Below, piece by piece: positions 809 through 51,278 of a stretch of 56,015 nucleotides of DNA. The position numbers were made by a program, and so were the translations under genes. This DNA comes from Bacillales bacterium (GTDB taxonomy: Bacteria; Bacillota; Bacilli; JARBTR01). The notes under the pieces are model-generated. The model searched no databases. It was not told the DNA's origin and saw nothing but the letters and a program-made list of their open reading frames with translations. Position 1 is the first letter of the stretch. The number at the start of each line of letters is the position of its first letter. Location of the stretch: positions 1 through 56,015 of the forward strand of contig JAVBKE010000031.1 in the NCBI GenBank assembly GCA_031554185.1, given 5' to 3'.

Positions 809-1759
809 CTATTCAGTTTTCTGGTCTCTTAAACTGCAAACCTCTTCTCTCATATCTTTTAATGTTGAGTAGAACCTTTCAACTGCGATAAAAATTGATA
901 CAATTGCAAAAATAATTTTTGTGTTTGAGCTTTCAACATTTATGTCAATAACCGATATTGAAATTGGAATAAACCCCAGAAAAACAATTAGCCTGCGACT
1001 GAGTAGCACAAGCTTTTTTTTATGAATTGAGTTAACCCATAATAAAAGAAAAATAGTAACCCAGAAAATAAATACAGATAGTGATGAAATATCTTTAAGC
1101 AATAATTGTGAGAGCCGACAAAGTACAATTAGCGATATAAAGAGTAAAAAGCTCTTTATCAGTTTTGGCTTCTTTATTTTTAAATCAAAAGATTTTAATA
1201 TTAATATGCAATGTGAGAGCTCTTTTAGAAATTGCCCGTTGTTATCGCTATTGGAAAAAAATATGATAAAAATTAAAATGGTAAGTATCAGTAATATGAC
1301 AATTGCTTCTGGAAATATAAGGGTGAATATAATAGTAGATCCAATCATGATGATTGATATTTTCCTAAACAGATTTTTGGTTAAATTACAAATAACAACA
1401 ACAGGAATAAACATTAAAAAGTACTTTATTGTATTTAATAATTGTGCAGTCGTAGATGCGATAGTTTCTGTTGTAAGCGTCTCTGAATATTTATAAAAAA
1501 CGAGAGTAAAATAGTCAATTGAGCTAGAGATATCAAGCAGTTTAGCTGTATCTATCGTGTAGTTTATCATTGATAAAAAAAGTGAAGTTGTTTCATAGAT
1601 TGCGAATAACACACCTGATATTATGTACCCTAAGAACATTAAGGCTAACAGATCAGGAAATCTGGTTTTCACCCCGTTTTTCTCATTTTCATCCTGTTTG
1701 TTTTTTAATTTCTGGGATGTGATTTCGAACGTCTCAATTATTAAATCTTTTGTATTCAT
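809..1759 (-). CDS. Hypothetical multi-pass membrane protein
   Basis: 316-aa ORF with GAGGAGGGGG RBS, several hydrophobic segments, AT-rich; family not recognised. Confidence 0.7.
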   Translation of the reverse strand: MNTKDLIIETFEITSQKLKNKQDENEKNGVKTRFPDLLALMFLGYIISGVLFAIYETTSLFLSMINYTIDTAKLLDISSSIDYFTLVFYKYSETLTTETIASTTAQLLNTIKYFLMFIPVVVICNLTKNLFRKISIIMIGSTIIFTLIFPEAIVILLILTILIFIIFFSNSDNNGQFLKELSHCILILKSFDLKIKKPKLIKSFLLFISLIVLCRLSQLLLKDISSLSVFIFWVTIFLLLWVNSIHKKKLVLLSRRLIVFLGFIPISISVIDINVESSNTKIIFAIVSIFIAVERFYSTLKDMREEVCSLRDQKTE

Positions 1760-2171: not shown

Positions 2172-2265
2172 TGGCGGAAGCATATGGGAATCGAACCCAC
2201 CCACGACCATGAGCCGCAACACAGTTTTGAAGACTGGCAGGCACACCAGTTGCCCTTCTACTTCC
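2172..2265 (-). tRNA. selC: tRNA-Sec (anticodon UCA)
   Basis: Reverse complement GGAAGTAG...CAGT-CTTCAAA-ACTG...long variable arm...GTGGG-TTCGATT-CCCAT-ATGCTTCC-GCCA; 94 nt, encoded CCA, adjacent to selB. Confidence 0.96.
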
Positions 2266-2272
2266 ATGAGTA

Positions 2273-2300
2273 ATTATATCATAGCCAATTGGTTTTTCAA
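2273..2300 (-). promoter_or_regulatory. Sigma-A promoter of selC
   Basis: TTGAAA-N16-TATAAT with extended -10 (TGnTATAAT), 7 nt before the tRNA 5' end. Confidence 0.7.
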
Positions 2301-2526
2301 GATGCTATGAACAATTTAATATAGGGTTTTTCTGGGATATCACTGGGGAAAGATCTCAACTACTGAGGAACTAGTAAGCAGGTAATTCACTATGAAATGG
2401 CCGTTTTCATCAAGGATTAAATCTCTTGAATTCTTGCTAATATGGTATAATGGCTACAGTCAAAACATACAAAAACAGATTATGAAATGCAGACCTTATC
2501 AATAGAAATAGAGGAGAAACTTTTCT

Positions 2527-4416
2527 ATGCAAAACGTTATTATCGGCACTGCGGGGCATATCGATCATGGTAAGACAACGTTAATTAAGGCGCTTACGGG
2601 CAGGAACACTGATACTCTGGAAGAAGAGAAAAAGAGAGGTATTTCCATCAATTTAGGATTTACCTACTTTGATTTGCCGAGTGGCAAACGAGCTGGAATC
2701 GTTGACGTTCCAGGGCATGAGAAATTTATTAAAAACATGCTCGCCGGTGCTACAGGAATTGATATCGTACTTTTAACCATTGCAGTGAATGAAGGTGTTA
2801 TGCCGCAAACAGTGGAGCATATTGATATCCTCAATTATTTAAATATAGAAAAAAGCATCATTGTTTTAACTAAATGTGATACGGTTGAGGAACAATGGAA
2901 AGAGCTTGTCATTGAAGATGTAAAGGAAAAAGTCAGTGGCACAATGTTCGAGAGTGCCGAAATAATAGAGGTTGATTCTATTAGTGGCAATGGCATCGAG
3001 CAGCTGATCAAACAAATTGATCAAATGACAGAGATCGTGCGTGTTAAGAATACAAGAACATCGCCAAGACTGAATATTGATCGCGTTTTCTCATTGAAAG
3101 GATTCGGTACAATTGTGACAGGCACCTTATCGGAGGGAGCAATTTCCGTTGAAGATGAACTTGTTATCTACCCACATAAACACAAAGCTAAAATAAGAAA
3201 TATTCAAGTACATGAACAAAATGTCAATACAGCGTACGCAGGACAGCGGACAGCGATTAACATTGCTAATATTAAAACAACGGATGTGAAGAGAGGCGAT
3301 GTTCTTGGTGTAGTTGATGCGATGAAGGCAACTAAATTCCTTGATGTAAAAATTGAATTGGTGAAGTCCTTCGAAAGGGAATTAAGGCTTTGGAGTAGAG
3401 TAAGGGTTTTCTTAGGTACAAAAGAAGTTCTAGCGCGACTTGTTCCATTGGATAAAGAAATGATTGCTGGTGGTGAGGGTGGATTTTGCCAATTGCGACT
3501 TGAGGAGACTGTTTACGTTAAAAAAGGTGACCGTTTTGTACTTCGTTTTTTCTCACCTGTTTCGACAATCGGTGGCGGGATTGTTCTAGATCCTAATCCC
3601 AAGAAGCATGGGACCTCGGACATTGCCATCCTTCAAAAGTTGCAGATGCAGTTTGAAGGCGATGACAAAGAAATCATTGAAAACTATATAGAGGATAATG
3701 GCGAAAAGAAAGTGACATTGAAAGACATCTTGGGCTATATCTCAAAGGACGATACGGTTACACAGGGGCTTGTGAAAGAACTAGTAGACGAGGAGATCAT
3801 CTGTGAAATCAATCAAGCGTTCTATCACCTGAACACAATTGAGCAAATTCAAATGAGTCTAGTTGAAAAACTGTCAATATTTCATCAGAAATTCAACCTT
3901 AAAGAGGGCCTCTCCAAAGAAGAGCTACGAAAGAGCGTCAAAATCAAATTTGCTACAAAAGAATGGGATATTCTCCTTGGAAAAATAGAAAGCGACAAGT
4001 TGATCAAAATTCAGTCAAATATTGTCTCCCTCCATGGTTTTTCTGTAGAATACAATGAGAAACAGAAGAAAATAAAAGATGAAATCGAGCAGGTATTATT
4101 AAAAAGTAAATTTACGCCACCAACGCTTGAAGCGTTAACGAATCATCAAAGCAAAAGCTATCTTGAGGTACTTGAATCTTTGCTAAATAAGTCAGTGGTT
4201 GGACTGGATCAACAAACGGTCATTCATAAAGACTATTATGATCAAGCTAAAGCAATTGTTTTAGAAAAATTGGATAAAAATGGTGAAATCACCCTAGCAG
4301 AATTAAGGGATGAGATCCAATCAAGCCGAAAATATGCAGTTCTCCTTTTGGATGATTTTGATAAGAAAAAAATGACTAGACGAATAGAGGATAAACGTGT
4401 CCGATTTGGGGTTTAA
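2527..4416 (+). CDS. selB: Selenocysteine-specific elongation factor
   Basis: [24 protein letters not shown] and DVPGHE G-domain motifs; C-terminal winged-helix SRKY motif; 629 aa. Confidence 0.97.
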
Positions 4417-4447
4417 ATGTGATCTTTTTGTGACATTTCAAAACCTA

Positions 4448-4476
4448 TTGACTTTTAAAATGCAGGTTCCTATAAT
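4448..4476 (+). promoter_or_regulatory. Sigma-A promoter of grd operon
   Basis: TTGACT-N17-TATAAT. Confidence 0.8.
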
Positions 4477-4503
4477 GGACTTGAAAGCAATGATAATAAA
4501 TAT

Positions 4504-4633
4504 GGATGAAGAGTAAGCGAGAGCGTATGTGAAGATGCCACCGAAGGGACAAACTAGGGGCTGACCGATCCTTAGTGAAATTCTCAGGTAAAAGGAACTT
4601 ACTTGGACAAACTCTGGATTTAATTAGACTGAG
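4504..4633 (+). ncRNA. Glycine riboswitch, singlet with 3' ghost aptamer
   Basis: GGATGAA leader, P1 GAGTAAG/CTTACTT, GAGAG, CACCGAAGG, CTCAGGTAAAAGG motifs, then GGAC...CTCTGGA...GACTGAG. Confidence 0.88.
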
Positions 4634-4662
4634 TATAGGTATAATGCCTATACTCTTTTTTT
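4631..4662 (+). terminator. Riboswitch-controlled intrinsic terminator
   Basis: GAGTATAGGTA-TAA-TGCCTATACTC followed by T7; overlaps the ghost helix. Confidence 0.85.
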
Positions 4663-4687
4663 ATTAAAAAAGTTTGGTGGAGATGAA

Positions 4688-5062
4688 TTGAAAAAGATTG
4701 TGATCTCAAATAATCCTTCTGTTTATCAGCAATACAATACTGAAGTGGCGTTTCTTTATCAAGAAAGCTATACATTTATAGATGTTCTACGAGTAACAAG
4801 AGATATGATTCACAAGGGGCATAAACTCCTTACCCACCCTTTATCAGGCAGTATTAAGCCGTATGAAACACCTTATAAAACGATTTTAGTTACAAAAGAA
4901 ACTGTAACCCTCGATTTAGATTCACTCCATATGATAGAAGATGCCATTACAACGACTGAGAAATTCATAAAAAATATTCAACAAAGAAAATTAAATACGA
5001 AGACACTGCAAGATTTTCAAATGATTGATTTAAGTTTAATTGAAGATAGTATGACCAGATAA
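4688..5062 (+). CDS. grdX: GrdX family protein
   Basis: RDMIHKGHKLLTHPLSGSIKPYETPYKTI signature; first gene of a grd operon. Confidence 0.9.
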   Translation: MKKIVISNNPSVYQQYNTEVAFLYQESYTFIDVLRVTRDMIHKGHKLLTHPLSGSIKPYETPYKTILVTKETVTLDLDSLHMIEDAITTTEKFIKNIQQRKLNTKTLQDFQMIDLSLIEDSMTR

Positions 5063-5157
5063 TTTTAAAGGAGGTGTTAAGGCATCGGGAAATTGCACTA
5101 CATTTTTCCGGTAAACTTGTTCACAGTACTTAAAATAACGGAGGTACAAATCCAATT

Positions 5158-6117
5158 ATGAGAGAAATTGATGTAGTCATTATCGGGGCAGGACCTGCAG
5201 GACTTTCCGCTGGGCTTTATGCGAGCCGGGCTAAGCTCAGTACGATTATTCTGGAACACAATGCCCGTGGTGGACAAATCGTCATTACAGACGAAGTCGC
5301 CAACTATCCTGGCTCGATCGAAGATGCGACAGGTCCAACATTGGTGAAAAGGATGGTGGATCAAGCGAAGGCGTTCGGTGCTGAAATTGTTAAAGACAAG
5401 GTCATTAGTATTGATCTATCTGGCCGAACGAAAATTGTCAAGGGTGTTGACAATGAATATCATGCAAAAGCTGTGATCATTGCCAATGGTGGGAAAAGTC
5501 GTCCAATTGATTGCCCAGGTGAGAAAAAGCTTATTGGCAAAGGGGTGTCTTATTGTGCTACTTGTGATGCTGATTTCTTCGAAGACATGGAAGTGTTCGT
5601 CATCGGTGGCGGAGACTCTGCTGTAGAAGAAGCACTGTATTTAACAAAATTCGCACGCAAAGTAACGATTGTCCATCGCCGTAATGAGCTTCGGGCTGCT
5701 AAATCACTTTGTGATCATGCTTTTGACAATGCAAAGATTGAATTTTTATGGGATACAGTTGTGGAAGAGATCAAAGGTGATGGTATTGTCGAATCGATTG
5801 TATTTAAGAATGTGAAGACAAATGAGGTTCATGAATTCTTCGCTGATGAAGAAGATGGGACTTTTGGTGTGTTCGTTTTTATCGGATTTAATCCAGTGAG
5901 TGAACTATACAAAGGGGCTATCGATATGGATGAATCAGGTTATATTGTGACAGACGACAACATGAATACGAATATTGATGGTGTCTATGCCGCCGGAGAC
6001 ATTAGAGTCAAGTCTCTCCGCCAAGTGGTTACTGCCGCTGCCGATGGTGCAATTGCTGCCGTCCAAGCAGGTAAGTATATAGATGAATGTCAAAATGAAA
6101 AAGTGAAAGTGAGGTGA
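5158..6117 (+). CDS. trxB: Thioredoxin reductase (grd-associated)
   Basis: GAGPAG, CATC active site, [10 protein letters not shown]. Confidence 0.95.
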
Positions 6118-6121
6118 TTTC

Positions 6122-6439
6122 GTGCATTTAATAGAAAAAGAAGCATTTCAAACAGAGGTACTAGATTATCAAGGTCTATGTGTTGTCGATTATTTTGGCG
6201 ATGGTTGCGTACCATGTCAAGCGCTTTTACCAGATATCGAGGCACTTGCTGAGCAATATCAGGGAAAAGTAAAGTTTGTGAAATTCAACACAACTAAGGC
6301 AAGAAGGCTAGCAATTTCGCAAAAGATACTTGGACTACCGACCATTTCAATTTATAAAAATGGTGAAAAGGTAGATGAAGTAACCAAAGATGATGCAACA
6401 AAAGCAAGCGTACAAGCGATGATTGAAGGGCAATTATAA
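6122..6439 (+). CDS. trxA: Thioredoxin (GCVPC type)
   Basis: GCVPC active site typical of glycine-reductase-linked thioredoxins; GTG start. Confidence 0.9.
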
Positions 6440-6485
6440 TGCTATTTGATGACCGATTTTAGTAGGAATCAAGGAGGTGAATATC

Positions 6486-7769
6486 ATGAAACTAGAACTT
6501 GGAAACATTCATATCAAAGATATCCAATTTGCGGATTTTACAAAAGTAGACAATGGCGTTCTCTATGTGAATAAGCAAGAGCTAAAGAATCTGGTCATGG
6601 AAGATGAGAATATCAAAAGTGTTCAATTTGATTTAGCTCGGCCGGGTGAAGAAACAAGAATCACACCTGTTAAAGATGTCATCCAGCCCCGCGTAAAAGT
6701 AGAAGGTGGCGAGTATTTTCCTGGGACGATTGGCAAAGTCGGAACTGTTGGTAGTGGCCGGACGCATGTTCTACATGGTATGGCGGTGGTGACTTGTGGT
6801 GAAATTGTTGGATTCCAAGAAGGAATCATTGATATGAGTGGCCCAGGGGCAGATTTCACACCATTTTCAAAATTACTCAATCTTTGCGTTGTAATTGAAC
6901 CTGTAGAGGGCATCAAGCCTTATGATTATGAGGCATCTGCAAGATTTGCAGGCTATAAAGTAGCCAAACTACTTGGGGAAAATGCACGAACAATTACACC
7001 GGATGAAGTCACTGTCTATGAAACTAAGCCGGTTTTAGAAAGTATAGCAGAGCATCCTGACCTGCCAAAAGTGGGTTATGTCTACATGCTACAAACGCAA
7101 GGATTAATGCATGATACTTATGTCTACGGTGTTGATGCGAAGAAGATTGTGCCAACAATTCTTTACCCAACCGAGGTAATGGATGGGGCTATCACCAGCG
7201 GAAATTGTGTTTCTGCCTGTGATAAAAACACTACTTACCATCACCAAAACAATCCGATTATTCAAGATTTGTATGCTCGTCACGGTGTCGATATCAATTT
7301 TATCGGTGTCATTATTACCAATGAAACAGTTTTCTTGGCTGATAAAGAGCGTTCATCAGATTGGACAGCAAAGCTTTGTAAGTTCTTGGGGTTTGATGCG
7401 GTGATTGTTTCGCAAGAAGGGTTTGGCAATCCTGATACAGACCTGATCATGAATTGCAAGAAAATTGAGTTTGAGGGAATCAAGACTGTTATTGTCACGG
7501 ATGAGTACGCAGGTGTCGACGGAACTTCTCAATCTTTAGCGGATGCTGATCCACTGGCAAATGCAGTAGTCACAGGCGGTAATGCCAATGAGAAAATTGT
7601 GCTACCACCAATGAAGAAAATCATTGGGATGCTAGATTATGTGGACAAAATTGCTGGCGGTGCTACTGGTAGCTTACGAGCAGATGGCAGCATTGAAGCG
7701 GAAATTCAAGTCATCACGGGTGCAACTAACGAGTTAGGTTTTAACCGTATGACAGCTAAAGAGTACTAA
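6486..7769 (+). CDS. grdE: Glycine reductase component B proprotein (alpha/beta subunits)
   Basis: MKLELGNIHIKDIQF N-terminus, SGNCVSACDK processing motif, EGFGNPDTDL; ATG 6486 follows AAGGAGGTG. Confidence 0.92.
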   Translation: MKLELGNIHIKDIQFADFTKVDNGVLYVNKQELKNLVMEDENIKSVQFDLARPGEETRITPVKDVIQPRVKVEGGEYFPGTIGKVGTVGSGRTHVLHGMAVVTCGEIVGFQEGIIDMSGPGADFTPFSKLLNLCVVIEPVEGIKPYDYEASARFAGYKVAKLLGENARTITPDEVTVYETKPVLESIAEHPDLPKVGYVYMLQTQGLMHDTYVYGVDAKKIVPTILYPTEVMDGAITSGNCVSACDKNTTYHHQNNPIIQDLYARHGVDINFIGVIITNETVFLADKERSSDWTAKLCKFLGFDAVIVSQEGFGNPDTDLIMNCKKIEFEGIKTVIVTDEYAGVDGTSQSLADADPLANAVVTGGNANEKIVLPPMKKIIGMLDYVDKIAGGATGSLRADGSIEAEIQVITGATNELGFNRMTAKEY

Positions 7770-7808
7770 TCAAACAATTAAATAATGATAGGAAAGGGGA
7801 AATGAAAG

Positions 7809-8279
7809 ATGGGATTATTTGATGATAAAAAAGTGATTGTCATTGGTGATCGTGATGGTATTCCAGGACCAGCTGTTGAAGAGTGTTTGAAATCAACAAC
7901 TGCTGAAGTCGTCTTTTCTGCTACAGAATGCTTTGTTTGAACTGCAGCAGGAGCGATGGACCTAGAAAATCAAAATAGGGTAAAAGCCGCTGTTGATAAA
8001 TTTGGCGGAGAAAACGTAATTGTGTTAATTGGCGCAGGAGAGGCAGAAGCCGCAGGCCTTGCAGCAGAAACAGTTACGAATGGAGATCCTACTTTTGCAG
8101 GTTCGTTAGCTGGAGTCCAGTTGGGACTCAAGGTATACCATGTTGTAGAACCAGAATTTAAAGAAGCTGTAGATGCAGCTGTTTATGATGAACAAATTGC
8201 GATGATGGAAATGGTCTTGAATGTCGATGAGATTGTTCAAGAAATGACTTCAATGCGTGAACAGTTCACCAAGTACTAA
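7809..8279 (+). CDS. grdA: Glycine reductase selenoprotein A (Sec at UGA 7938-7940)
   Basis: [22 protein letters not shown]...[19 protein letters not shown]; CxxU motif; in frame with ORF-track fragment 7956..8279; 156 aa. Confidence 0.96.
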
Positions 8280-8306
8280 TATTTTCTCAGAAAGGAGGAG
8301 AAGCAA

Positions 8307-9617
8307 ATGGGAAAGCTTCGTATTGTTCATTATCTCAACCAGTTCTATGGCGGAATTGGTGGTGAAGACAAAGCTGACTACAAACCTGAACTTCGTGAGG
8401 GCTTTGTAGGTCCAGGGATGGCAATTAATGCACAACTCAAAGGAGAGGCAGAAATTGTTGCAACCGTCATTTGTGGTGATTCTTATTTTAACGAAAATGT
8501 AGAAGAAGCGACAAACACATTGATGGATATGATTAAATCGGTGCAACCGGATATTTTGATTGCTGGTCCTGCATTTAATGCGGGGCGTTACGGAATGGCT
8601 TGTGGGCAAATTTGTTCAACAGTTTCTAATCAATTAAATATTCCTGTCGTGACAGCAATGTATGAAGAAAATCCAGGTGCTGAATCGTTTAAAAAGGATG
8701 TCTACATACTAGCAACGGGAAAATCCGCTGCTAGTATGAGAGCAGCTGCACCAGCGATCGGGCAATTTGCATTAAAGCTGTTAGGCAAAGAAGAAATTGG
8801 CTCTGCGACTGAAGAAGGTTACTTTCCAAGAGGCCGCAGGAAGAATGTATTTGTATCCGAAAGAGGCGCAACCAGAGCAGTCAATATGCTTGTGGACAAA
8901 ATCAAAGGTGAGTCTTTTGAAACGGAATATGCTATGCCAATTTTTGATACTGTTCCAGCAAATCCAGCTGTGAAAGATATCAAAAATGCACGAATTGCGC
9001 TAGTTACTTCTGGCGGGATTGTTCCTAAAGGAAATCCAGATAGAATTGAATCTTCAAGTGCATCGAAATACGGGAAATATAGTATTGCTGCACTTGATGA
9101 GCTGACTGAAGCCACATATGAAACGGCTCATGGCGGCTATGATCCTTCTTATGCAAATGAAAATCCAAATCGAGTTGTTCCTATCGATGTTCTGCGTGAC
9201 ATGGAAAAAGAAGGCGAGATCGGAAAATTGCATGAGTATTTTTATAGTACCGTTGGTAATGGGACGTCTGTAGCGAGTTCAAAAGCGTATGCTGAGAACT
9301 TTGCACAGGAACTCGTGGCAGATGGAGTAATGGCTGTCATATTAACATCCACCTGAGGAACTTGTACTCGTTGCGGTGCAACGATGGTTAAAGAAATTGA
9401 AAGAGCTGGCATTCCTGTTGTACATGCATGCACAGTGGTTCCAATTTCTATAACAGTAGGTGCAAATAGAATTATTCCTACTGTGGCAATTCCGTATCCA
9501 TTTGGTAATCCGCTACTGGATGCAGCTGAAGAGAAAAAGGTGAGACGGAAACTGGTTGAACAAGCGATTGTTGCTTTGCAAACTGAAGTGGAAGGTCAAA
9601 CTGTTTTTGAACAATAA
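8307..9617 (+). CDS. grdB: Glycine reductase selenoprotein B gamma subunit (Sec at UGA 9354-9356)
   Basis: VHYLNQFYGGIGGEDKA N-terminus; ILTST-UGA-GTCTRCGATM (UxxCxxC); joins ORF-track fragments 8307..9356 and 9384..9617; 436 aa. Confidence 0.95.
9368..9384 (+). promoter_or_regulatory. Bacterial SECIS hairpin of grdB
   Basis: Perfect stem TCGTTGC-GGT-GCAACGA starting 11 nt after the UGA. Confidence 0.8.
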
Positions 9618-9630
9618 TACAAGATTGATA

Positions 9631-9664
9631 TGAGGCTTTGCCATGATCATTTGGTAAAGCCTTG
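9631..9664 (+). other. Intercistronic stem-loop between grdB and grdC
   Basis: TGAGGCTTTGCCA/TGGTAAAGCCTTG, no U-tract. Confidence 0.65.
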
Positions 9665-9686
9665 TAGAAGTTATGGAGGGTGAAAA

Positions 9687-11219
9687 ATGTCATTAGCAGT
9701 CCTAAAAGGTGCGAGTTATATACTTGTACATACACCAGATATGGTTCTTCATGCGGGTACAACTCAAACAATGGAGAAAGCTTCAAATCCAGATTCTGAT
9801 TATTTAAAGGCGCTAGATAATCATATTAGAGATTTTTCAAAAGCAGTTAATTATGGACCGAACCAGACATTTATCGGAAACTTGACGCCTGATGAGCTAA
9901 AAGCAGTTACTGCACCATGGTATGAGCAAGGCATACAATCCGCTGATCGGTTTGGGAAATTTGGCGAAATTATGCCGCAAGAAGAGTTTATTGGCCTGCT
10001 GAAAATTGTAGACGTTTTTGATTTGGTTCAGCTCGAAACTGGTTTTGTAGAATTAGCAAAAGATCAACTACTGAACCATCCATTATTAAAAGATGATGTC
10101 ACTAAGCTGAAAGAGGGCGTTACCCTTGGTGAAATCGAAATAATGGTTACAGAAAAAGGTGCGGAACCGATCTTTCATCAAAAGCAGTTAGTTGGTTGCG
10201 TGAAAAGAGCCCATGATGTTGATGTGAATTTGAATGCCCATGTCCTTTTTGAAAATCTTGTTGTGAAAGCTTCTGGCTATTTAGCCTTCAAGAATTTAAT
10301 CGCAAAATACCAGCTTGATGTAACAGCAGTCGATTATGTGATTGAGTGCTCTGAAGAAGCATGTGGTGATATGAATCAAAGAGGTGGCGGTAACTTTGCC
10401 AAGGCAATTGCAGAAACAGTCGGTGCAGTGAATGCAACTGGTTCTGATACAAGAGGTTTCTGTGCTGCGCCTATTCATTCACTCATTGAAGCATCGGCAC
10501 TTGTCAAAGCGGGTGTTTACAGAAACGTTGTCGTTGTAGCAGGTGGGGCAACTGCAAAACTCGGTATGAACGGAAAAGATCATGTGAAAAAAGGACTACC
10601 CATATTAGAAGATGTGTTAGGAGGATTCGCTGTTCTTATCAGCGAAGACGATGGGGTGTCGCCGGTTTTTAATACAGATTTGGTTGGACGTCATACAGTC
10701 GGAACTGGTTCATCGCCTCAAGCTGTAATGAGTGCACTAGTCACAGCTCCCTTAGAGAAGGCCGGACTTGCAGTTACAGATATTGATAAGTACTCTGTTG
10801 AAATGCAAAATCCAGAAGTGACAAAACCAGCTGGTGCTGGTGATGTTCCAGAAGCGAATTATAAAATGATCGCTGCACTTGGTGTGATGAGAAAAGATAT
10901 TGAACGCAAGCAGTTGCCTGATTTTATTGAGAAGCATGGAATGGTTGGGTTTGCACCTACACAAGGGCATATTCCTTCAGGCGTTCCTTACTTGGGTTTT
11001 GCGCGTGAGGATTTAACAACAGGCTCATTTAATAAAGCAATGATTATTGGCAAAGGCAGTCTGTTTCTTGGGCGCATGACAAACTTGTTTGATGGGGTAT
11101 CAATCATCTTGGAAAGAAACAATGGTCAAGGTGAAGATGGGAACATTTCTAAAGAACAAGTGAAGTCCTTAATCGGAGAATCATTAAGGGAGTTTGCTTC
11201 TCAACTAATGAAAGCTTGA
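9687..11219 (+). CDS. grdC: Glycine reductase component C beta subunit
   Basis: ECSEEACGDMNQRGGGNFAK, RGFCAAP, GKGSLFLGRMTNLFDGVS; FabH-like. Confidence 0.95.
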   Translation: MSLAVLKGASYILVHTPDMVLHAGTTQTMEKASNPDSDYLKALDNHIRDFSKAVNYGPNQTFIGNLTPDELKAVTAPWYEQGIQSADRFGKFGEIMPQEEFIGLLKIVDVFDLVQLETGFVELAKDQLLNHPLLKDDVTKLKEGVTLGEIEIMVTEKGAEPIFHQKQLVGCVKRAHDVDVNLNAHVLFENLVVKASGYLAFKNLIAKYQLDVTAVDYVIECSEEACGDMNQRGGGNFAKAIAETVGAVNATGSDTRGFCAAPIHSLIEASALVKAGVYRNVVVVAGGATAKLGMNGKDHVKKGLPILEDVLGGFAVLISEDDGVSPVFNTDLVGRHTVGTGSSPQAVMSALVTAPLEKAGLAVTDIDKYSVEMQNPEVTKPAGAGDVPEANYKMIAALGVMRKDIERKQLPDFIEKHGMVGFAPTQGHIPSGVPYLGFAREDLTTGSFNKAMIIGKGSLFLGRMTNLFDGVSIILERNNGQGEDGNISKEQVKSLIGESLREFASQLMKA

Positions 11220-11228
11220 GGTGAAAAA

Positions 11229-12389
11229 ATGACACAAGATATAAAAAAATTAATTGGTGAAGTTTTCTTACAAGTTGCAGATGGGATTGAGTCTGGTGTT
11301 TTTCAAGAAAGAAAAAAAGTAGGGCTGACACTGTTTGGATCTGAACATGGCGCATCAAACCTTGTAAAAGGTGCGGAAGCCGCTTTTCGAAATGATGGCC
11401 GGTTTGACATCGTGTTAATCGGACCGAAAGTGGAAACAAAACTTGAGGTCATCGAAGTGGCAAGTGAAGAATTGATGCATACCAAAATGGAAGAATTATT
11501 GGATAACGGGTCAATAGATGCCTGTGTGACTATGCACTATAACTTTCCAATCGGTGTCTCAACTGTTGGCAGAGTGGTTACACCAGGTCAAGGAAGAGAA
11601 ATGCTTTTGGCAACAACGACTGGGACGAGTTCGACAAACAGGGTTCATGCAATGATAAAGAATGCTATAGGTGGCATCATTACTGCTAAAGCGATCGGGA
11701 TTGAAAAACCAACAGTTGGCATTTTAAACATCGACGGTGCTAGACAAGTTGAAAAAGCACTCGAAGCGTTAAATGTGAATGGTTATTCAATTGAGTTCTC
11801 AGAGTCCATTCGCGCTGATGGTGGTGCTGTGATGAGAGGAAATGATTTACTTTGTCCCAATGTCGATGTCATGGTCACTGATAGTTTGACAGGAAACCTT
11901 ATGATGAAAATGTTCTCAGCATATATGACAGGTGGTAGTTACGAAGCTTTGGGTTATGGTTATGGCCCTGGCGTAGGCGCTGATTATAATCGCCTAGTGC
12001 TCATCCTTTCAAGAGCTTCAGGTGTACCTGTTGTTGCTAACGCATTGATTTATGCGGCACAACTGGCTCAGGGAAATTTAATCAAAGTGGCTAAGCAAGA
12101 GTTTGAGCAGGCGAAAGGGGCAAAATTAGATGAAATCTTGGCGATGATGACCAAAATAACGAATGAACAGAATAAGTCGGCAGGGCTAATTAAACAACCA
12201 AATAAGGAAGTTGTCACTGAAGAAATTAGCGGGATTGACATCATGTCACTGGAGGAAGCAGTGCAAGCACTTTGGCGTGAAGGAATTTATGCTGAAAGTG
12301 GCATGGGATGTACTGGGCCGATTGTATTGGTGAATGAAAATAAGCTTGCAGCGGCAAAGCAATCGCTAGAGAAGACTAATTTCTTGTAG
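11229..12389 (+). CDS. grdD: Glycine reductase component C alpha subunit
   Basis: GSEHG, MHYNFPIGVSTVGR; C-terminal GIYAESGMGCTGP with catalytic Cys; PlsX-like. Confidence 0.95.
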   Translation: MTQDIKKLIGEVFLQVADGIESGVFQERKKVGLTLFGSEHGASNLVKGAEAAFRNDGRFDIVLIGPKVETKLEVIEVASEELMHTKMEELLDNGSIDACVTMHYNFPIGVSTVGRVVTPGQGREMLLATTTGTSSTNRVHAMIKNAIGGIITAKAIGIEKPTVGILNIDGARQVEKALEALNVNGYSIEFSESIRADGGAVMRGNDLLCPNVDVMVTDSLTGNLMMKMFSAYMTGGSYEALGYGYGPGVGADYNRLVLILSRASGVPVVANALIYAAQLAQGNLIKVAKQEFEQAKGAKLDEILAMMTKITNEQNKSAGLIKQPNKEVVTEEISGIDIMSLEEAVQALWREGIYAESGMGCTGPIVLVNENKLAAAKQSLEKTNFL

Positions 12390-12773
12390 AAAAACAGAGG
12401 TAGTGTGGAAAAAAATAGAAGACTGGAAAGCAAGCACTTAATCCAGTACCGTATACTTTTATATAATGGAAATAAAAGGAATGGAAACCCCTCGGGAATG
12501 GGAATGGGTGTTGATGGGTGCGGAGCGCTCTTTTTTATGGAAATGTCTATTTTCATATCAGCATGGAAATAAAAAAAAAGTGACTATAATCAATAGTTGT
12601 TAATCAGAATTTCATGAAAATAATAAGATTGTTATATTCAATCGTTTTTCTACAATGAGCATGTAATTTAGATCCATGAAAAAATTGTTTTAGTAAATTG
12701 GGTAGTCTATACTAATGATTTATTGCGATCATTTGTTATAATGGGGGTACTAAAAAAAAAGAATGAGGAAAAA

Positions 12774-14327
12774 ATGAACAGATCTTTAATCAATTTTGCA
12801 AAGCAATTGCAAAATGACTTACCCCTTACAACGGACGATGCGCTTAGCCTTGTTGATGAAGCTAGGGTTCTCTATCGTCAATATCGTGTACAGATTCTAG
12901 AGAATAATGAAAAACACCTGATTGGCAATGTTCGCGATAAAGAGAAAGAATTTATTGTCATCAATTTTAAACCTTCTCTACAAAAAAGCTGTAGTTGCGC
13001 CTCAAAGGAACCGGTTTGCCAACATCAATTGGCACTTTTTTTTGCTGCATTTGATCGGTATCAAAGTATTTCTAAATGGATTGAAGCTTGGAAAACAGGT
13101 AGTGAGCAAAACGAGATGTATCAATTTTCATATACAATTGATGTAGAACGAGAATTGGAAAATTGGATAGCGTTTTTCGAGAAAGCAGCACAGAAGGAGC
13201 TTTCTAAGGAACTATTTCGTAGTTACTATGGTGAGTACAACTTTGTTTCAGCTTATACAAAAGCAATTCGGTCACGAATTCCCTCTGACCCTAGCTGGGC
13301 AAACCTTTATTTAATGATTGGCTATTATTTTGGGCTGAAAGAAATATGGTTAACGGAGGATCCAAAAACAGTTACCACTTTTTACAGAAGTAAAGGGGAA
13401 TATCTTCTAGATTCTTTTGGTGAAGCAGTAAGAGGGTATATGGATAATCCGATCCCTGAAAAAGCTGAGGTTGTCTTCAAGCAACTTAGGGAAGAGACGC
13501 AATCCTCAATTTTCATGGATCAAGACTATTTACTGCAGAAATGGCACGTTTATTGCGTGTTTTGGTCAAAATTTCTGGCTTCCGGTGAGGATCGTAAAGC
13601 AGAAATTGAAAGGTTGCAAGCCAGTTCCAATCATTATTTTAGCAAGCCAGCACTGATGTATTTGTGGGATGTAGAAAATCAGTCGGAAAAAGCTGCCTCC
13701 ATTTTGAATGAAGTGGAACTAACCTCATTTCCATTACTCATTTCTATGATGGATCACTATAACGAGCAAAAGGATTTCCAATTCGTGAAATTGATCATTG
13801 ACTGGGTGATAGAACATGTGCAAGTGGCTGATATTATTCAGGTGAAGGAAGCGCTTGTTTCTCCAATTGAACATTTCTGTACCATAGTCATTGACTATGT
13901 AGAAAATTCACAGGATTTTGATCTAGGTGAAAAGGCGTTGAAACAGTACATGCCTTTTTCTCAAAAAGAATATGCATCACTCATTTTTGAGAAGAAAGAT
14001 TATCGTAAATGGGTTGATTTGCTGATGATTAGTCCAGAAAATATCTTATACAGATATTCAGAACAAATTGCAACCATCGCAAAAGAAGCACCTGAATTCC
14101 TTCTACCGATTTATCATTTTCACATTAGCTTAGAAATTGCAAGCAAAAATCGTCAATCCTACAAGCAAGCTGTTCGTTATATGAAAAAATTAAGAACGAT
14201 TTATAAAAAATTGAAAAAGAACCATGCGTGGGAGCAATATCTAGATTATATTGTGTCATCAAATAAGCGCCTACGCGCCTTTCAATCAGAGCTAGAAAGG
14301 GGGAAGCTGATTAGTTATGTTGAATAG
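12774..14327 (+). CDS. SWIM zinc finger protein (YwqB-like)
   Basis: CSC...CQH SWIM motif; C-terminus KNRQSYKQAVRYMKKLR...KRLRAFQSEL; overlaps SNF2 gene; start chosen after GAGG. Confidence 0.85.
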   Translation: MNRSLINFAKQLQNDLPLTTDDALSLVDEARVLYRQYRVQILENNEKHLIGNVRDKEKEFIVINFKPSLQKSCSCASKEPVCQHQLALFFAAFDRYQSISKWIEAWKTGSEQNEMYQFSYTIDVERELENWIAFFEKAAQKELSKELFRSYYGEYNFVSAYTKAIRSRIPSDPSWANLYLMIGYYFGLKEIWLTEDPKTVTTFYRSKGEYLLDSFGEAVRGYMDNPIPEKAEVVFKQLREETQSSIFMDQDYLLQKWHVYCVFWSKFLASGEDRKAEIERLQASSNHYFSKPALMYLWDVENQSEKAASILNEVELTSFPLLISMMDHYNEQKDFQFVKLIIDWVIEHVQVADIIQVKEALVSPIEHFCTIVIDYVENSQDFDLGEKALKQYMPFSQKEYASLIFEKKDYRKWVDLLMISPENILYRYSEQIATIAKEAPEFLLPIYHFHISLEIASKNRQSYKQAVRYMKKLRTIYKKLKKNHAWEQYLDYIVSSNKRLRAFQSELERGKLISYVE

Positions 14328-17130
14328 TCAAAATAACCGGATGCAGGTGAACTGTAAACTGGTTGATTCCCAGCAGTTCTTTATTTATGTCACTTACAAA
14401 ACAGTGGAACTTCCGCTGGAGCGGTGGTCTGGCATACTTTTTCAATGGCATGCACCTAGTTTTTATGGTACAACGCTCACCCGGACGAATATCAATGGCA
14501 AACCGGGTGTCTTAATTTCTGCCTATGATTGGCTTGAAATCTTAGCAACCAAATCCTTTAATGATTTAATGAATTGGCATTGGGACCCACTTTCAAGCGC
14601 TAGTTTATCACTGAGTGAAGCTATATTTGAAAATATTCAGGTGCTAGAATACAAACCTTCTGGGGTTGTACAAGAAGAACAAGGTACCCTTCAGCTGCCT
14701 GAAAAAATTGAAAATCAGTTTGCAAGTGATTTTTGGTCAACACCACTAATGGGCATTTCTCTCGACGAGGAGAACGCTACAGAAAAGCAGACAGTTAAGT
14801 CATTCGCGACTAATTGGTTCCGTGAATCAGTCAAAGCAGAACCAACTTATCAAAAGATCATTGAGTTAGAATCAAAACTGATCGAAAAGGGAATTTCAAC
14901 GGATGGCCTCAGCCAGTTCTTTGATCATGACCGTTGGCAACAGTTTATTGGTGTGGAAACAGAGGCACCCTTCACAATTGGTGTTCGCTTGTCTGATCCG
15001 GATTTTGAGCAAGATCAGAATGCTGAGGACTGGAAGCTAGAGGTCTTTTTGAGGAGTAAGAAATCACCTGAAATAGTGATTCTCTGGTCTGATCGTAGAA
15101 AAGCAGCACCTTCCTGGAAAAAGCATTTTTATGATGTTGAACTTGAAATAGCACGTTGGAAATTTATGTTTCCTTGGTTTACAGCTGAAATTAATGATAC
15201 TCAGGCGTGGTCATTTTTGATGGATGCTTCAGAAATCCTTGTCAAACTTGGGGTAGAAGTGCTTTTGCCAGCGTGGTGGCAGTCAATACAAAGTGCAAAA
15301 ATGGCTGTTAGTGCGAAAGTCAGAAATAACTTTAAGTCATTTGTTGGATTAGACGCACTGGTTGATTTTGATTGGCAGCTAGCGATTAATAATCAAATGA
15401 TTTCAAGGGATGAATTTAACCAGTTGGTTACAGAGAAACGTAGATTGATTTTTATCGGTGGTAAGTGGATCAGATTGGACGATCAATTTATGGATCGAAT
15501 TCAGCGGATCATGCGTGAAGCAGAAGAGAAGGGCTTGACGATGTATGACCTGCTTCATCAACAGTTACCGACTGCTGATGGTGAGTCATCTAATGCCGAT
15601 AACGAATATATACAGATTCAATTTGAAGTGAACAATGAATTAAAGCGCTTTATGAATCATTTAAATCATTTTTCAGAAATTCCTGTATCGGCAGTAGCGC
15701 AGAGTTTTCAAGGTGAGTTGCGTCCTTATCAGATTCAAGGGATGAGCTGGCTATTGTTTTTACGAAAATACGGTTTGGGATGTTGCCTTGCGGATGATAT
15801 GGGACTTGGAAAGACGATTCAGATCATTAGTTATTTGCTGTCGGTCAAAGAATCAGAAGAACGACAAGCGCCCTCACTCATTGTTTGCCCTACTTCTGTG
15901 CTCGGGAATTGGCAGAAAGAGCTAGAGAAGTTTGCTCCAAGTTTAAATGTGGCACTTCATTACGGGCCACAAAGAAAACATGAAGCGCAGTTTCATGAAG
16001 CAATTGCCAAAGCTGATGTTGTCTTAACAAGCTACGGGCTCTTGCCGCAAGATGAAGTCGATTTTCTGGATGTCAAATGGGATGCGATTGTATTAGATGA
16101 GGCGCAAAATATCAAGAATGATTTCACAAAACAATCGAAAGTGGCTCGGAAACTAAAAGGGCGCCATACGATTGCCGTGACAGGAACACCGATTGAGAAT
16201 CGATTGAGTGAATTGTGGACGATTTTTGATTTTGCGATTAAAGGCTATCTTGGTTCAGCAAACAAATTTAATCAGAATTTTGCAAGTCCAATTGAACGAG
16301 AAGGCGATAAGAAAAAAACAGTTCAGTTACAGAAATTAATTCAGCCATTTCTACTTAGGCGTTCAAAAAAGGATAAGGAAATTGCCTTAAACTTACCTGA
16401 TAAATTAGAGCAAAAAGAGTTCGTATCACTTACAAGTGAGCAGGCAGCGCTTTATCAAAGTATTGTTGAAGATACATTGGTCAAAGTAGATCAAACAGAA
16501 GGTTTTGAACGGAAGGGTCTTATTTTGCAGATGCTATCAAAGTTGAAGCAGATTTGTAATCATGCTGCCCTGTTCTTAAAAGAGGAAAACCCACAAGATA
16601 TTTTAAAGCGTTCTGAAAAAACAGAGAAATTAGTTGAACTGCTTGAGACGATTTTAGCGAAGCAAGAAAGTACTTTGGTGTTTACGCAGTTTCTTGATAT
16701 GGGACATATGATCCAAACTTTACTCAAATCACAGTTTGGGTTGCAAGTACCTTTCCTAAAAGGAAGTGTACCGAAAAAGCAACGGGATGAGATGATTGAG
16801 CGTTTTCAAAATGGAGAATTCCCAATTCTACTCTTATCACTTAAAGCAGGCGGTACAGGACTAAATTTGACTGCGGCTAATCATGTTGTTCACTATGATC
16901 GTTGGTGGAATCCTGCTGTTGAGAATCAGGCAACAGACCGAGTGCATCGAATCGGTCAAACAAAATTTGTTCATGTGCACAAGCTAATCGTATCAGGAAC
17001 TCTTGAAGAGAAAATAGATATAATGCTCGAGAAGAAAATGCATTTAAATGAGGAAATTATTCAAAGTGATAATTGGGTTACTGAACTTTCGACGGAAGAA
17101 TTGAAGGATTTGTTGGTGCTTTCGGAGTAG
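14317..17130 (+). CDS. SNF2-family helicase/ATPase (YwqA-like)
   Basis: LADDMGLGKT, DEAQ, TGTPIENRL, GLNLTAANHVVHYDRWWNPAVENQATDR. Confidence 0.93.
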   Translation: MLNSQNNRMQVNCKLVDSQQFFIYVTYKTVELPLERWSGILFQWHAPSFYGTTLTRTNINGKPGVLISAYDWLEILATKSFNDLMNWHWDPLSSASLSLSEAIFENIQVLEYKPSGVVQEEQGTLQLPEKIENQFASDFWSTPLMGISLDEENATEKQTVKSFATNWFRESVKAEPTYQKIIELESKLIEKGISTDGLSQFFDHDRWQQFIGVETEAPFTIGVRLSDPDFEQDQNAEDWKLEVFLRSKKSPEIVILWSDRRKAAPSWKKHFYDVELEIARWKFMFPWFTAEINDTQAWSFLMDASEILVKLGVEVLLPAWWQSIQSAKMAVSAKVRNNFKSFVGLDALVDFDWQLAINNQMISRDEFNQLVTEKRRLIFIGGKWIRLDDQFMDRIQRIMREAEEKGLTMYDLLHQQLPTADGESSNADNEYIQIQFEVNNELKRFMNHLNHFSEIPVSAVAQSFQGELRPYQIQGMSWLLFLRKYGLGCCLADDMGLGKTIQIISYLLSVKESEERQAPSLIVCPTSVLGNWQKELEKFAPSLNVALHYGPQRKHEAQFHEAIAKADVVLTSYGLLPQDEVDFLDVKWDAIVLDEAQNIKNDFTKQSKVARKLKGRHTIAVTGTPIENRLSELWTIFDFAIKGYLGSANKFNQNFASPIEREGDKKKTVQLQKLIQPFLLRRSKKDKEIALNLPDKLEQKEFVSLTSEQAALYQSIVEDTLVKVDQTEGFERKGLILQMLSKLKQICNHAALFLKEENPQDILKRSEKTEKLVELLETILAKQESTLVFTQFLDMGHMIQTLLKSQFGLQVPFLKGSVPKKQRDEMIERFQNGEFPILLLSLKAGGTGLNLTAANHVVHYDRWWNPAVENQATDRVHRIGQTKFVHVHKLIVSGTLEEKIDIMLEKKMHLNEEIIQSDNWVTELSTEELKDLLVLSE

Positions 17131-34926: not shown

Positions 34927-36682
34927 GTATGTGTCAAGTTTTTCTCGAAGGTGTTGCCACACCAATAAATACAGCACATAAGAAATGTACACTTCATAGG
35001 GCATATCGCTCCATATTTTTTAAAGACTTCAATGGACGCCTAACTTTGTAAGGCTGAGCCTACCGGCGGTAGGCATTTGACAGGAGAGGTTTATCAAAGA
35101 GTCCACGATCCAAGTCAGCGCTCAACCTCTCCTGTCAAACGCTATAGTAGGTAATTCTTCAATCAACTAGAATTACCGAAATGCTTGTGCTAGGTTACCA
35201 GTTGCTGACGAATTGGCGCCATTCAAACTGATTTTCCCTCGTTTTGCGCCTACTGAGGGACGTGTTTTTGATTGTAAAAGTAATACCATATTTACTTTTT
35301 GGGTTACTTGTCGTTGTTTTCGTTCACTTCTTTTTTGTGAGGTCAAATAGGCGCCTCTTAAAGTATTGTTTAATATCCCTTGCTTTACCTTCACCATGCC
35401 TTCAGCACCTGCCGCACTCCAATGCATACCACGCTTTTTCATGCGAAATGACACATGCCTTTGATTTGACTCCATGGCTCCTAGACCTCTAGCGACCTGT
35501 GGCTTTTTTTCCACCTTCATTCGCCAGTCAAAAATCCTTTCCCAATTTCCTGAAATATAAGTACAAAAATCCTTTAGCTTCTGACTTTTTTTCTCATCGT
35601 CCAGTGTACTTTCATAAGTGTCTGTCCATCGTTTAAATGCATCTTTATCATGCGCATCTATTGCTGCTCTCACATGGCTTTTAAACGGGTTCTGAACACC
35701 AAATGCTCGGCTCAAACTTTGATAGATGTGGTACGAATCCAATTGTGCTAACACTGGCTTTTTTGACTGCGAAAACGCTGTCCGAAACTTTTCCGCTCTA
35801 TAGCCTGAACCACCATCACTATTAGCCACAATTTGCGTATCCTCTAAACTATATTTTTGTGCTCCTATTGACTGGACTTCTTTCCAAAATGCTTCGTTAC
35901 CCTTTGTTGTCATGATCACTGTTGGCTGCTTTAGCGAAGCTCTTTCTCCATTTAATTCCCAACCTTCATACATGATCCCATGGTACACTTCTCGGCTTTT
36001 TCGCTTCTGCGTGCTTCGTATAAACACTCCATCTGCTTCAACCATTAGATAATCAACTTTTTTCCCTTCTGGCAAGCTCTCCGCATATTCTAGTTCTTCC
36101 ATGGCTTCCTGATCCGCCTGCCCTTGGGCTGCACCAACCTGCTTGACAATTTTCCCTACGGTCTGGTGACTCATCTCTACGCTCGTCCATTCCTTCAGTA
36201 TCCTTGATGTCTCTCGGTAGGTGCTTTCACTTGCCATCTCTGCCACCTTTATTTCTACCAGTGGACTATACCTTTGATGACGTCTCAGACCCATCCATTC
36301 ATCTAGTGGGTAATATGCCTTTCCCTTTGCGTCATGCATTAACGTTCTCTTTATTTTCACGCGCCCAAATGTAAAACAAATGTTTTTTTCGTCTTTCCTC
36401 TTCATTACGCTTTTCTTTTCCTGCTCTTCCTCCACTATCACTTGATTTAATGATTCTAATGCCTCTGTCATTGCCTCTAGAAACACTTCGTCTTTGTACA
36501 GCGTTAATTTCTCTTCTGCTTCAATTGAGTTCTTTGTTCCCTTTATTATTTCGCATATTCTTGTTACAATTGGTTTCATAAGAAAGCACTCTCTAAATGT
36601 ATTTGCCCTTGGAAGCATACATTTATGTTACTGTGCTTTCTTTTTATTGCCTAGTAGGCATCGAGTAATATTTTACACGTAC
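34927..36682 (-). mobile_element. ISLre2-family insertion sequence, 1756 bp
   Basis: Imperfect 22-bp terminal IRs (GTATGTGTCAAGTTTTTCTCGA vs GTACGTGTAAAATATTACTCGA, 17/22) flanked by 9-bp direct repeat GATCTGCAA at 34918-34926 and 36683-36691. Confidence 0.9.
35173..36618 (-). CDS. ISLre2-family transposase
   Basis: EADG, NSDGG, LDSYH, GAMES..RMKKRGMHWS motifs; true start may be ATG 36579. Confidence 0.9.
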   Translation of the reverse strand: MLPRANTFRECFLMKPIVTRICEIIKGTKNSIEAEEKLTLYKDEVFLEAMTEALESLNQVIVEEEQEKKSVMKRKDEKNICFTFGRVKIKRTLMHDAKGKAYYPLDEWMGLRRHQRYSPLVEIKVAEMASESTYRETSRILKEWTSVEMSHQTVGKIVKQVGAAQGQADQEAMEELEYAESLPEGKKVDYLMVEADGVFIRSTQKRKSREVYHGIMYEGWELNGERASLKQPTVIMTTKGNEAFWKEVQSIGAQKYSLEDTQIVANSDGGSGYRAEKFRTAFSQSKKPVLAQLDSYHIYQSLSRAFGVQNPFKSHVRAAIDAHDKDAFKRWTDTYESTLDDEKKSQKLKDFCTYISGNWERIFDWRMKVEKKPQVARGLGAMESNQRHVSFRMKKRGMHWSAAGAEGMVKVKQGILNNTLRGAYLTSQKRSERKQRQVTQKVNMVLLLQSKTRPSVGAKRGKISLNGANSSATGNLAQAFR

Positions 36683-42044: not shown

Positions 42045-42082
42045 CGCGGATTGCCTCCGATCCTAACAGAATTTACTTCCAT

Positions 42083-42112
42083 CAGTATTTCCTAAATGAT
42101 TGGAATTTATAA
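42083..42112 (-). promoter_or_regulatory. Sigma-F-like promoter of yqhH
   Basis: TTATA-N15-GGAAATACTG vs consensus GYATA-N15-GGnnAnAHTR. Confidence 0.5.
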
Positions 42113-42168
42113 GGGTAGCCGCTAATAAATGATGATCAGAACTTGCGACCAAAATTCTTGTGAAATAA

Positions 42169-42197
42169 TTGCTGACAGCTTGTGATAATGGTACGAT
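42169..42197 (+). promoter_or_regulatory. Sigma-A promoter upstream of small ORF/gcv operon
   Basis: TTGCTG-N17-TACGAT with extended TG. Confidence 0.5.
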
Positions 42198-42358
42198 AAG
42201 AAGAGGGAAAACGTTTTGCTTTGGTGGTTATTACCACGTTATTTTGATAGATGTTGAGAATTGGTTTTTTTGAAAGGATTCGTATACGCTTTCTAGTGAA
42301 TGAAAGCATCTCATTAAGAACAGATTAGAAACTTGAAAAAAGAGGAGTAGGTACTCAA

Positions 42359-42490
42359 ATGGATTTTCTACAAACACTTTTATTTGGTGTTGCAGGTCTG
42401 ATGATTTTGACGTTTATTCTCATTATTGGTTTTATCTTTGTGATTTACATATTCGTAAAAAAATTAATGAAAAACGGTCGAGATGATTGA
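42359..42490 (+). CDS. Small single-pass membrane protein, 43 aa (not in ORF track)
   Basis: GAGGAG RBS; MDFLQTLLFGVAGLMILTFILIIGFIFVIYIFVKKLMKNGRDD. Confidence 0.65.
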   Translation: MDFLQTLLFGVAGLMILTFILIIGFIFVIYIFVKKLMKNGRDD

Positions 42491-42584
42491 AATAGTTTGA
42501 TAAATTGATTAAGAAAGTGTTACTCTCATTGTGCAAATTCAGAGCATATATGGCTAAGACATTTTAATAAAGTGAGGGATTTGA

Positions 42585-51163: not shown

Positions 51164-51207
51164 CGAAACTCCTCCCAGAATGATATAAAAAACACAAATT
51201 CAAATTG

Positions 51208-51278
51208 CACTCATAGTCAAATAATTTATGGTTGCTTGGTAGAAACTGACGAGCTATATCCTCGTAATTATATGAATG
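51208..51278 (-). ncRNA. Purine (guanine) riboswitch
   Basis: CATTCATATAAT..GATATAG..GTTTCTACC..CCATAAA..GACTATGAGTG; C at the discriminator position; upstream of xpt. Confidence 0.85.

Follow-up and report, generated by a model that had tools for sequence, protein, structure and literature searches.

A glycine reductase operon of clostridial type, with its own selenocysteine decoding factor, in a metagenome-derived lineage of Bacilli

The glycine reductase locus

The 56,015-nucleotide contig JAVBKE010000031.1 (the window; contig C90 of the assembly) belongs to a metagenome-assembled genome (MAG) deposited as Bacillales bacterium (GCA_031554185.1, labelled G000 here) and carries the genes of a selenocysteine (Sec)-dependent glycine reductase, grdX-trxB-trxA-grdE-grdA-grdB-grdC-grdD, with the tRNA-Sec gene selC and the elongation factor gene selB directly upstream. 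The analysed region spans positions 2172-12389 of the window. Proteins were called by comparing NCBIfam and Pfam profile scores with the curated cut-off of each model, and RNAs by Rfam gathering scores; the scores are given below in bits, each followed by its threshold. SECIS stands for the Sec insertion sequence.

2172-2265, minus strand: selC, tRNA-Sec with anticodon TCA (ARAGORN; Rfam RF01852, 60.3 bits versus 47)
2300-2273, minus strand: promoter-like site next to selC, TTGAAA-16-TATAAT (consensus pattern match)
2527-4416, plus strand: selB, Sec-specific elongation factor of 629 residues (TIGR00475, 348 bits versus 242)
4448-4476, plus strand: promoter-like site of grd, TTGACT-17-TATAAT (consensus scan, 11 of 12 matches; pattern match only)
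4506-4609, plus strand: glycine riboswitch with a single aptamer (Rfam RF00504, 53.2 bits versus 32, full model 1-94)
4631-4665, plus strand: intrinsic terminator-like hairpin (4631-4655) including the T run, a putative expression platform (11-pair stem followed by TTTTTTTATT)
4688-5062, plus strand: grdX (NF038093, 133 bits versus 40)
5158-6117, plus strand: trxB, thioredoxin reductase dedicated to the complex (TIGR01292, 376 bits versus 343)
6122-6439, plus strand: trxA, clostridial-type thioredoxin (NF047697, 149 bits versus 140)
6477-7769, plus strand: grdE, protein B proprotein of 430 residues (best model sarcosine GrdG, 663 bits, under the cut-off of 780)
7809-8279, plus strand: grdA, selenoprotein A (NF040748, 266 bits versus 130)
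8307-9617, plus strand: grdB, selenoprotein B (TIGR01917, 710 bits versus 602)
9357-9394, plus strand: SECIS element of grdB, directly 3' of the TGA codon (Rfam SECIS_4, 65.4 bits versus 38)
9687-11219, plus strand: grdC, protein C beta subunit (NF040746, 813 bits versus 450)
11229-12389, plus strand: grdD, protein C alpha subunit (NF040747, 582 bits versus 350)

An earlier, sequence-only reading of this DNA had described selC, selB and the genes from grdX to grdD as intact, with both Sec codons in place, and this description was confirmed throughout. Every protein of the module but GrdE passed its NCBIfam cut-off. GrdE is full length and shares 80% identity with the GrdE of its nearest relative (locus L011), and all 45 of the 45 homologues aligned have its motif S-G-N-C244-V-S-A-C-D-K unchanged; C244 is presumably the self-cleavage site that generates the pyruvoyl group. 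GrdB is of the glycine type, as the sarcosine model (692 bits versus 800) and the betaine model (582 bits versus 775) both remained under their cut-offs. Its Sec350 is encoded by the in-frame TGA at 9354-9356, in the motif U350-G-T-C of the U-x-x-C type. Sec44 of GrdA corresponds to the in-frame TGA at 7938-7940 in the motif C41-F-V-U44, conforming to the C-x-x-U redox motif of GrdA as defined in a table of PMC13188914. The module thus has the make-up of a canonical Sec-dependent glycine reductase operon, apparently a working one.

The glycine riboswitch at 4506-4609 is an element absent from the sequence-only reading. The leader elements are correctly ordered, namely promoter-like site, riboswitch, terminator-like hairpin and grdX, and switching would be expected to proceed via the hairpin at 4631-4655. 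A glycine riboswitch likewise precedes grdX in seven of the eight related loci scanned, out of a total set of 46. The gcvT-gcvPA-gcvPB operon of Bacillus subtilis carries a tandem glycine riboswitch; in the interval 42044-42585, upstream of the gcvT-gcvPA-gcvPB genes of the window, no glycine riboswitch was found even at E-values up to 1. Among the glycine pathways of the window, riboswitch control was seen only at the reductive one.

Host genome and genomic context

The host is a member of the class Bacilli in an order of four species only, all of them MAGs with completeness of 77-88%. Its class follows from G007, a genome assigned to the same class, which matches the Vagococcus acidifermentans record with 100% identity across 4287 bases. 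G000 itself comprises 242 contigs, with 77% completeness and 1.2% contamination; G001 is a sister species of the same genus, while G002 and G003 represent two other genera of the same family. The designation "Bacillaceae-like" from the sequence-only reading is right only loosely, because the order of the host holds just these four MAG genomes; in the strict sense, membership of Bacillaceae or Bacillales was not borne out. The respiration-capable host proposed with it has support in the gene content, since the genome encodes one haem-copper oxidase subunit I (COX1), two cytochrome bd subunits I and SdhCAB. The genes ackA and pta for the handling of acetyl phosphate are also present in the genome.

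Outside the grd genes the window is Bacillus-like over 43 kb, with a b558-type sdhCAB, pstSCAB, treP/treA and licT, a gene of the YqhG family (PF11079) that adjoins a Snf2 helicase gene, and a divergent gcvT-gcvPA-gcvPB. The Bacillus-type context claimed previously stands as far as sdhCAB, the YqhG family, the Snf2 helicase and gcvT-gcvPA-gcvPB are concerned; the names ywqB/ywqA could not be confirmed, the 534-residue protein in question being without a Pfam or NCBIfam match.

Origin of the grd genes

A scan of one genome per species yielded 46 named GrdB loci, among which the top match to GrdB of G000, at 77% identity, came from a Defluviitaleaceae MAG. The other loci were mostly clostridial (63-72%), with some from Desulfovibrio (58-59%) and only one of the 46 from Bacilli (Vagococcus, 65%). 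In a GrdB tree of 57 rows, from which L002 (a duplicate of L020) and the truncated rows L049-L051 were excluded, G000 was sister to the Defluviitaleaceae MAG with a support of 95 in the SH-like approximate likelihood-ratio test (SH-aLRT), within a six-row clade of Lachnospirales and Defluviitaleaceae (95), and Vagococcus was placed elsewhere. The combined GrdC and GrdD tree (35 rows) put G000 in a 21-row clade of clostridia and Vagococcus (SH-aLRT 96). The grd gene order of G000 is the common clostridial one, unlike that of Vagococcus. The nesting in the GrdB tree, the 77% match and the mostly clostridial clade of GrdC and GrdD uphold the clostridial origin that had been proposed for the operon.

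The operon was not seen in its closest relatives, as GrdA and GrdB were not found in G001, G002 and G003, which make up the rest of the order. In total, full-length GrdB-family selenoproteins were detected in 10 of 401 sampled Bacilli genomes, and the glycine-specific cut-off was reached by two of them, G000 and Vagococcus. Six of the other eight matches were scanned further, four of them fitting best to betaine GrdH (706-719 bits versus a cut-off of 775) and two to sarcosine GrdF, all under the cut-offs; in the GrdB tree the other Bacilli GrdB-family proteins form separate branches. The left border of the transferred block is not definable, because the contig starts there, 2.1 kb upstream of selC, and the upstream genes of the sister species map to other contigs of G000.

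SelB, tRNA-Sec and the Sec trait of the family

SelB of G000 shares 81% identity with that of G001 and only 33-34% with the proteins of G002 and G003, a pair with a mutual identity of 64%. The identity to SelB proteins of other classes is 38-45%, reaching 45% with the Lachnospirales MAG L023; it is also 45% with Vagococcus. Two SelB trees (63 and 70 rows) placed G002 and G003 in a Bacilli-only clade (100), and the genus of G000 grouped with Vagococcus (SH-aLRT 99) inside a clade of sequences from other classes, where L023 supplied the nearest SelB outside the genus. Constraining the four SelB proteins of the family to monophyly cost 173 log-likelihood units (approximately unbiased (AU) test, p ~1e-77); the group was set by taxonomy, although the test was run after the tree had been seen. 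The gene order of L023, in which selB is followed by a glycine riboswitch and grdX-...-grdD, is the same as in G000, with similar spacing. Having selB and selC directly upstream is a rare arrangement, as only 2 of 23 named loci with at least 3 kb upstream of grdX are alike (L023 and L047). By these comparisons of sequence and gene order, selB is a clostridial-type xenolog.

The tRNA-Sec of G000 is 96% identical to that of G001 and 67-73% to those of G002 and G003; several tRNA-Sec sequences from clostridia reach 76-78%, so selC is probably foreign as well. No second selB was found in the G000 assembly, and a tblastn search with the G002 and G003 proteins revealed no remnant of a native-type selB. 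The suggestion that part of the Sec machinery had arrived with the grd genes is therefore sustained for selB, by the trees, the AU test and the gene order of L023, and probably for selC.

Sec decoding itself is a different matter. All three relatives possess selA, selB, selC and a Sec-containing selD, and SelA of G001, at 54-57% identity to its counterparts in G002 and G003 (outsiders: 43-48%), looks vertically inherited, which speaks against a gain of the trait in the grd event. The selD genes of G001, G002 and G003 (L064, L065 and L063) contain an in-frame TGA within A-G-U-G-C-K and a small hairpin about 15 bases downstream, whose stem and loop are slightly different in G001, a carrier of the foreign SelB; the hairpins of G001 and of G002 and G003 are nearly alike, and this comparison of the selD SECIS elements thus revealed no sign that they had been re-adapted to the foreign SelB. 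Nor can Sec decoding be called uncommon in Bacilli, as had been supposed: of 401 sampled genomes, 99 had a SelB above the cut-off, spread over 64 of 145 genera, and the trait is therefore not rare in the class.

An orphan gene for a PrdB-like selenoprotein of 247 residues was observed on contig C186 of G000 (L075:8411-9151, minus strand), intact and with one in-frame TGA, scoring 175 bits with TIGR04483, where the cut-off is 300. The gene is flanked by asnA and galE, close to pta and a haem synthase gene, and is present in both species of the genus (G001:C25); it was not found in G002 and G003.

The selC-selB locus of the sister species

On contig C77 of G001, selC and selB (81%) are directly followed by a homologue (64%) of the gene at 12723 of the window, with no grd genes between them. 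The spacer of 313 bases between selB and this downstream gene aligns to positions 4382-4554 of the window, taking in the promoter-like site of grd and the aptamer up to its 49th base, an alignment that none of 2000 shuffles equalled. A second alignment of the spacer covers window positions 12711-12778, leaving one stretch without a match.

4555-12710, no strand: stretch without an alignable counterpart in G001, which has about 130 unalignable bases instead

Since the riboswitch belongs to the grd leader in seven of eight relatives and its beginning is found in the G001 stub, the grd genes would be ancestral to both species and deleted in G001. The simplest reading is that the operon was present in the common ancestor of G000 and G001 and was lost in G001. 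An acquisition by the present species, as previously assumed, is unlikely on this evidence; the transfer appears older, as the sister species shares the foreign selC-selB and retains part of the grd leader.

Proposed explanation and alternatives

The explanation regarded as probable is that a glycine-inducible, Sec-dependent grd operon of clostridial origin resides in a respiring lineage of Bacilli, having been transferred as a block that displaced the native selB-selC pair, and having been lost again in the sister species. The ancestor of the genus would already have been Sec-decoding when it acquired the block selC-selB-riboswitch-grd from a clostridium similar to Lachnospirales or Defluviitaleaceae; the foreign selB, and probably the foreign selC too, would then have displaced the native pair, and the sister species would later have deleted the grd genes and kept the foreign selC-selB.

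In the cell, glycine is predicted to bind the leader riboswitch and thereby to prevent termination at the hairpin. GrdE, after self-cleavage to the pyruvoyl form, and GrdB with Sec350 would bind and deaminate glycine, handing the carboxymethyl group to Sec44 of GrdA, from which acetyl phosphate would be released by GrdC/GrdD and used by acetate kinase for the formation of ATP. GrdA would be re-reduced with NADPH by TrxB/TrxA, and the glycine cleavage genes of the window could provide the oxidative half of a glycine disproportionation. The biochemical steps are established knowledge of the complex, applied here from the genes alone.

Evenly poised is the further proposal that the foreign selB-selC hitch-hiked with grd, displaced the native decoding pair permanently, serves SelD and the PrdB-like protein, and outlasted grd in the sister species. 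The cause of the displacement may lie in the native SelB being a poor reader of clostridial SECIS elements. If the proposal is true, part of the translation apparatus would have been rewired by a metabolic operon, in the manner of a ratchet.

A number of observations weigh against the explanation. The scan for GrdB loci was keyed to six exact query peptides and thus sampled with a bias, and the trees were quick searches supported by SH-aLRT only. The donor is left unsettled by the GrdC and GrdD tree, and the contig of the closest MAG is without grdC and grdD and without anything upstream of grdX. The SelB row of G000 has an unusual amino-acid composition in the alignment, and the selC signal, drawn from 94 bases only, is weak, its direction agreeing with that of SelB. 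In grdA, no stable hairpin was predicted 3' of the TGA (7938-7990, z +0.86), and no Rfam SECIS element reached the gathering score there. No compositional trace of a transfer was seen, as the grd block, with a GC content of 41.1%, is close to the genome at 40.7%, and the GC and GC3 (at third codon positions) values of its genes are within the range of the neighbouring genes. The G001 spacer shows no significant retention of the aptamer's 3' half, with 1621 of 2000 shuffles scoring as well, and Rfam found no glycine riboswitch in this stub at the gathering score or at E-values up to 10. Finally, selA and selD, which function would need, were not found in the 77%-complete G000 assembly, nor were any of the about 12 open reading frames that accompany selD-selA, a divergent pair on contig C31, in a stretch of about 14 kb in G001.

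Several of these points are shared with other explanations. If the operon had been inserted recently in this species only, the sister would never have had grd and the intergenic similarity would merely reflect the 3' flank of selB; its presence in one of the four genomes of the order and the lack of detectable conservation in the 3' half of the aptamer would fit such an event. It is nevertheless unlikely, for the G001 spacer aligns through the promoter-like site and 49 aptamer bases better than any shuffle, this riboswitch is the grd leader in all but one of the eight relatives scanned, and G001 has the same foreign-type selB and selC. A decaying relic that has lost selA and selD would account for their absence from the assembly together with that of the open reading frames around them in the sister, and is judged quite unlikely, given that ten genes are intact, two TGA codons are kept, the grdB SECIS element scores 65 bits, the PrdB-like gene is intact as a third selenoprotein gene, and selA and selD occur in all three relatives. 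Besides, the assembly is just 77% complete, and contig C115 of G000 ends at the left edge of the selD-selA stretch, the right flank of which falls well inside contig C188. A gap in the assembly is likely at this region and a real absence possible. The claim that selA and selD are not in the window but lie elsewhere in the genome accordingly holds in its first part, whereas their presence elsewhere is presumed.

Vertical inheritance, in which grd and this type of selB were ancestral in Bacilli and lost many times, could draw on the 10 of 401 Bacilli with GrdB-family selenoproteins, the 99 of 401 with SelB and the absence of a compositional anomaly. It is largely refuted and very improbable, as only two of the 401 reached the glycine-specific cut-off, the six others scanned fit betaine (four) or sarcosine (two) best but below the cut-offs, the remaining Bacilli GrdB-family proteins occupy separate branches, GrdB and SelB of G000 nest among sequences of other classes, and the monophyly of the SelB proteins of the family was rejected. 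Hardly credible is an artefact of assembly or binning by which a clostridial fragment was joined to a Bacilli contig. The MAG is fragmented, with its 242 contigs and 1.2% contamination, but this selC-selB also occurs beside the same downstream gene in a second, independent MAG of the genus, the GC content is uniform across the joints, and 43 kb of Bacillus-type genes continue on the contig. A chimeric contig was rejected on the grounds of this junction, common to the independent MAG, and of the uniform GC content.

Relation to known systems

The grd operon of Clostridioides difficile has a leader glycine riboswitch and a dedicated trxA3/trxB3 pair, as described in PMC10880999. Compared with grd of C. 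difficile and of proteolytic clostridia, the operon of G000 has the same genes, order, leader riboswitch and thioredoxin pair, and GrdA and GrdB likewise contain Sec; it differs in its host, here a respiring member of Bacilli, and in the position of selB and selC immediately before the operon.

Another parallel is Photobacterium profundum, for which Romero et al. 2005 (PMC1273633) report that the Sec-decoding trait was transferred together with glycine reductase. In both cases the host is facultative and not a clostridium, has a glycine reductase selenoproteome and carries sel genes of foreign origin. In P. profundum, according to that source, the trait arrived complete, with selA, selB, selC and a selD that itself contains Sec, beside a native selD, whereas the recipient here would already have had the full trait, of which only selB and probably selC were replaced, with SelA looking vertical.

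Apart from G000, only Vagococcus acidifermentans among the sampled Bacilli has a GrdB of the glycine type (703 bits), and its SelB groups with that of G000. Its gene order, grdX-grdE-grdA-grdB-trxB-trxA-grdC-grdD, is unlike that of G000, no grd riboswitch was found, and selB is located next to a PrdB gene on a different contig; its GrdB, 65% identical to that of G000, forms a separate branch. In the literature on glycine reductase in Bacilli and Bacillales, titles and abstract openings contained no grd operon in Bacilli, and the passages searched in PMC5029168 and PMC1794560 mention none; a genome note on Enterococcus durans, in the passages searched, gives a grdB annotation only.

The operon type, its riboswitch and thioredoxin pair, and a joint transfer of grd and sel genes into a facultative host are thus already known. 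What is new is the recipient, an order of Bacilli represented by MAGs alone, with an existing Sec apparatus that appears to have been partly replaced and a replacement that appears to have outlasted grd in the sister species. The locus is a clear further example of Stickland-type glycine reduction, here in a respiring lineage of Bacilli that has been seen in metagenomes only, and it corrects the view of Sec decoding as a rarity in Bacilli. More unusual would be a selenoprotein operon that moves with its own decoding factor and replaces that of the recipient, with gain and later loss within one genus. The genus offers a natural system for tests of SelB-SECIS compatibility, and it carries the warning that trees of sel genes can mirror what happened to one operon, and not how the trait as a whole was passed on.

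Other features of the window

Like the protein at 12723-14327 (plus strand), the protein at 809-1759 (minus strand) showed no match to any Pfam or NCBIfam model. The latter is a multi-pass membrane protein that adjoins selC, with a low GC content of 31.7%, and the former, of 534 residues, is translationally coupled to the Snf2 helicase at 14317-17130. A transposase gene of the ISLre2 family (35173-36618, minus strand; 320 bits versus 200) lies between sdhC and recQ. A protein with an alpha (eukaryotic-type) carbonic anhydrase domain is encoded at 49648-50448 on the plus strand (PF00194, 160 bits), and a purine riboswitch (51194-51295, minus strand; 79 bits) is located upstream of the xanthine phosphoribosyltransferase gene at 50570-51163 on the minus strand.

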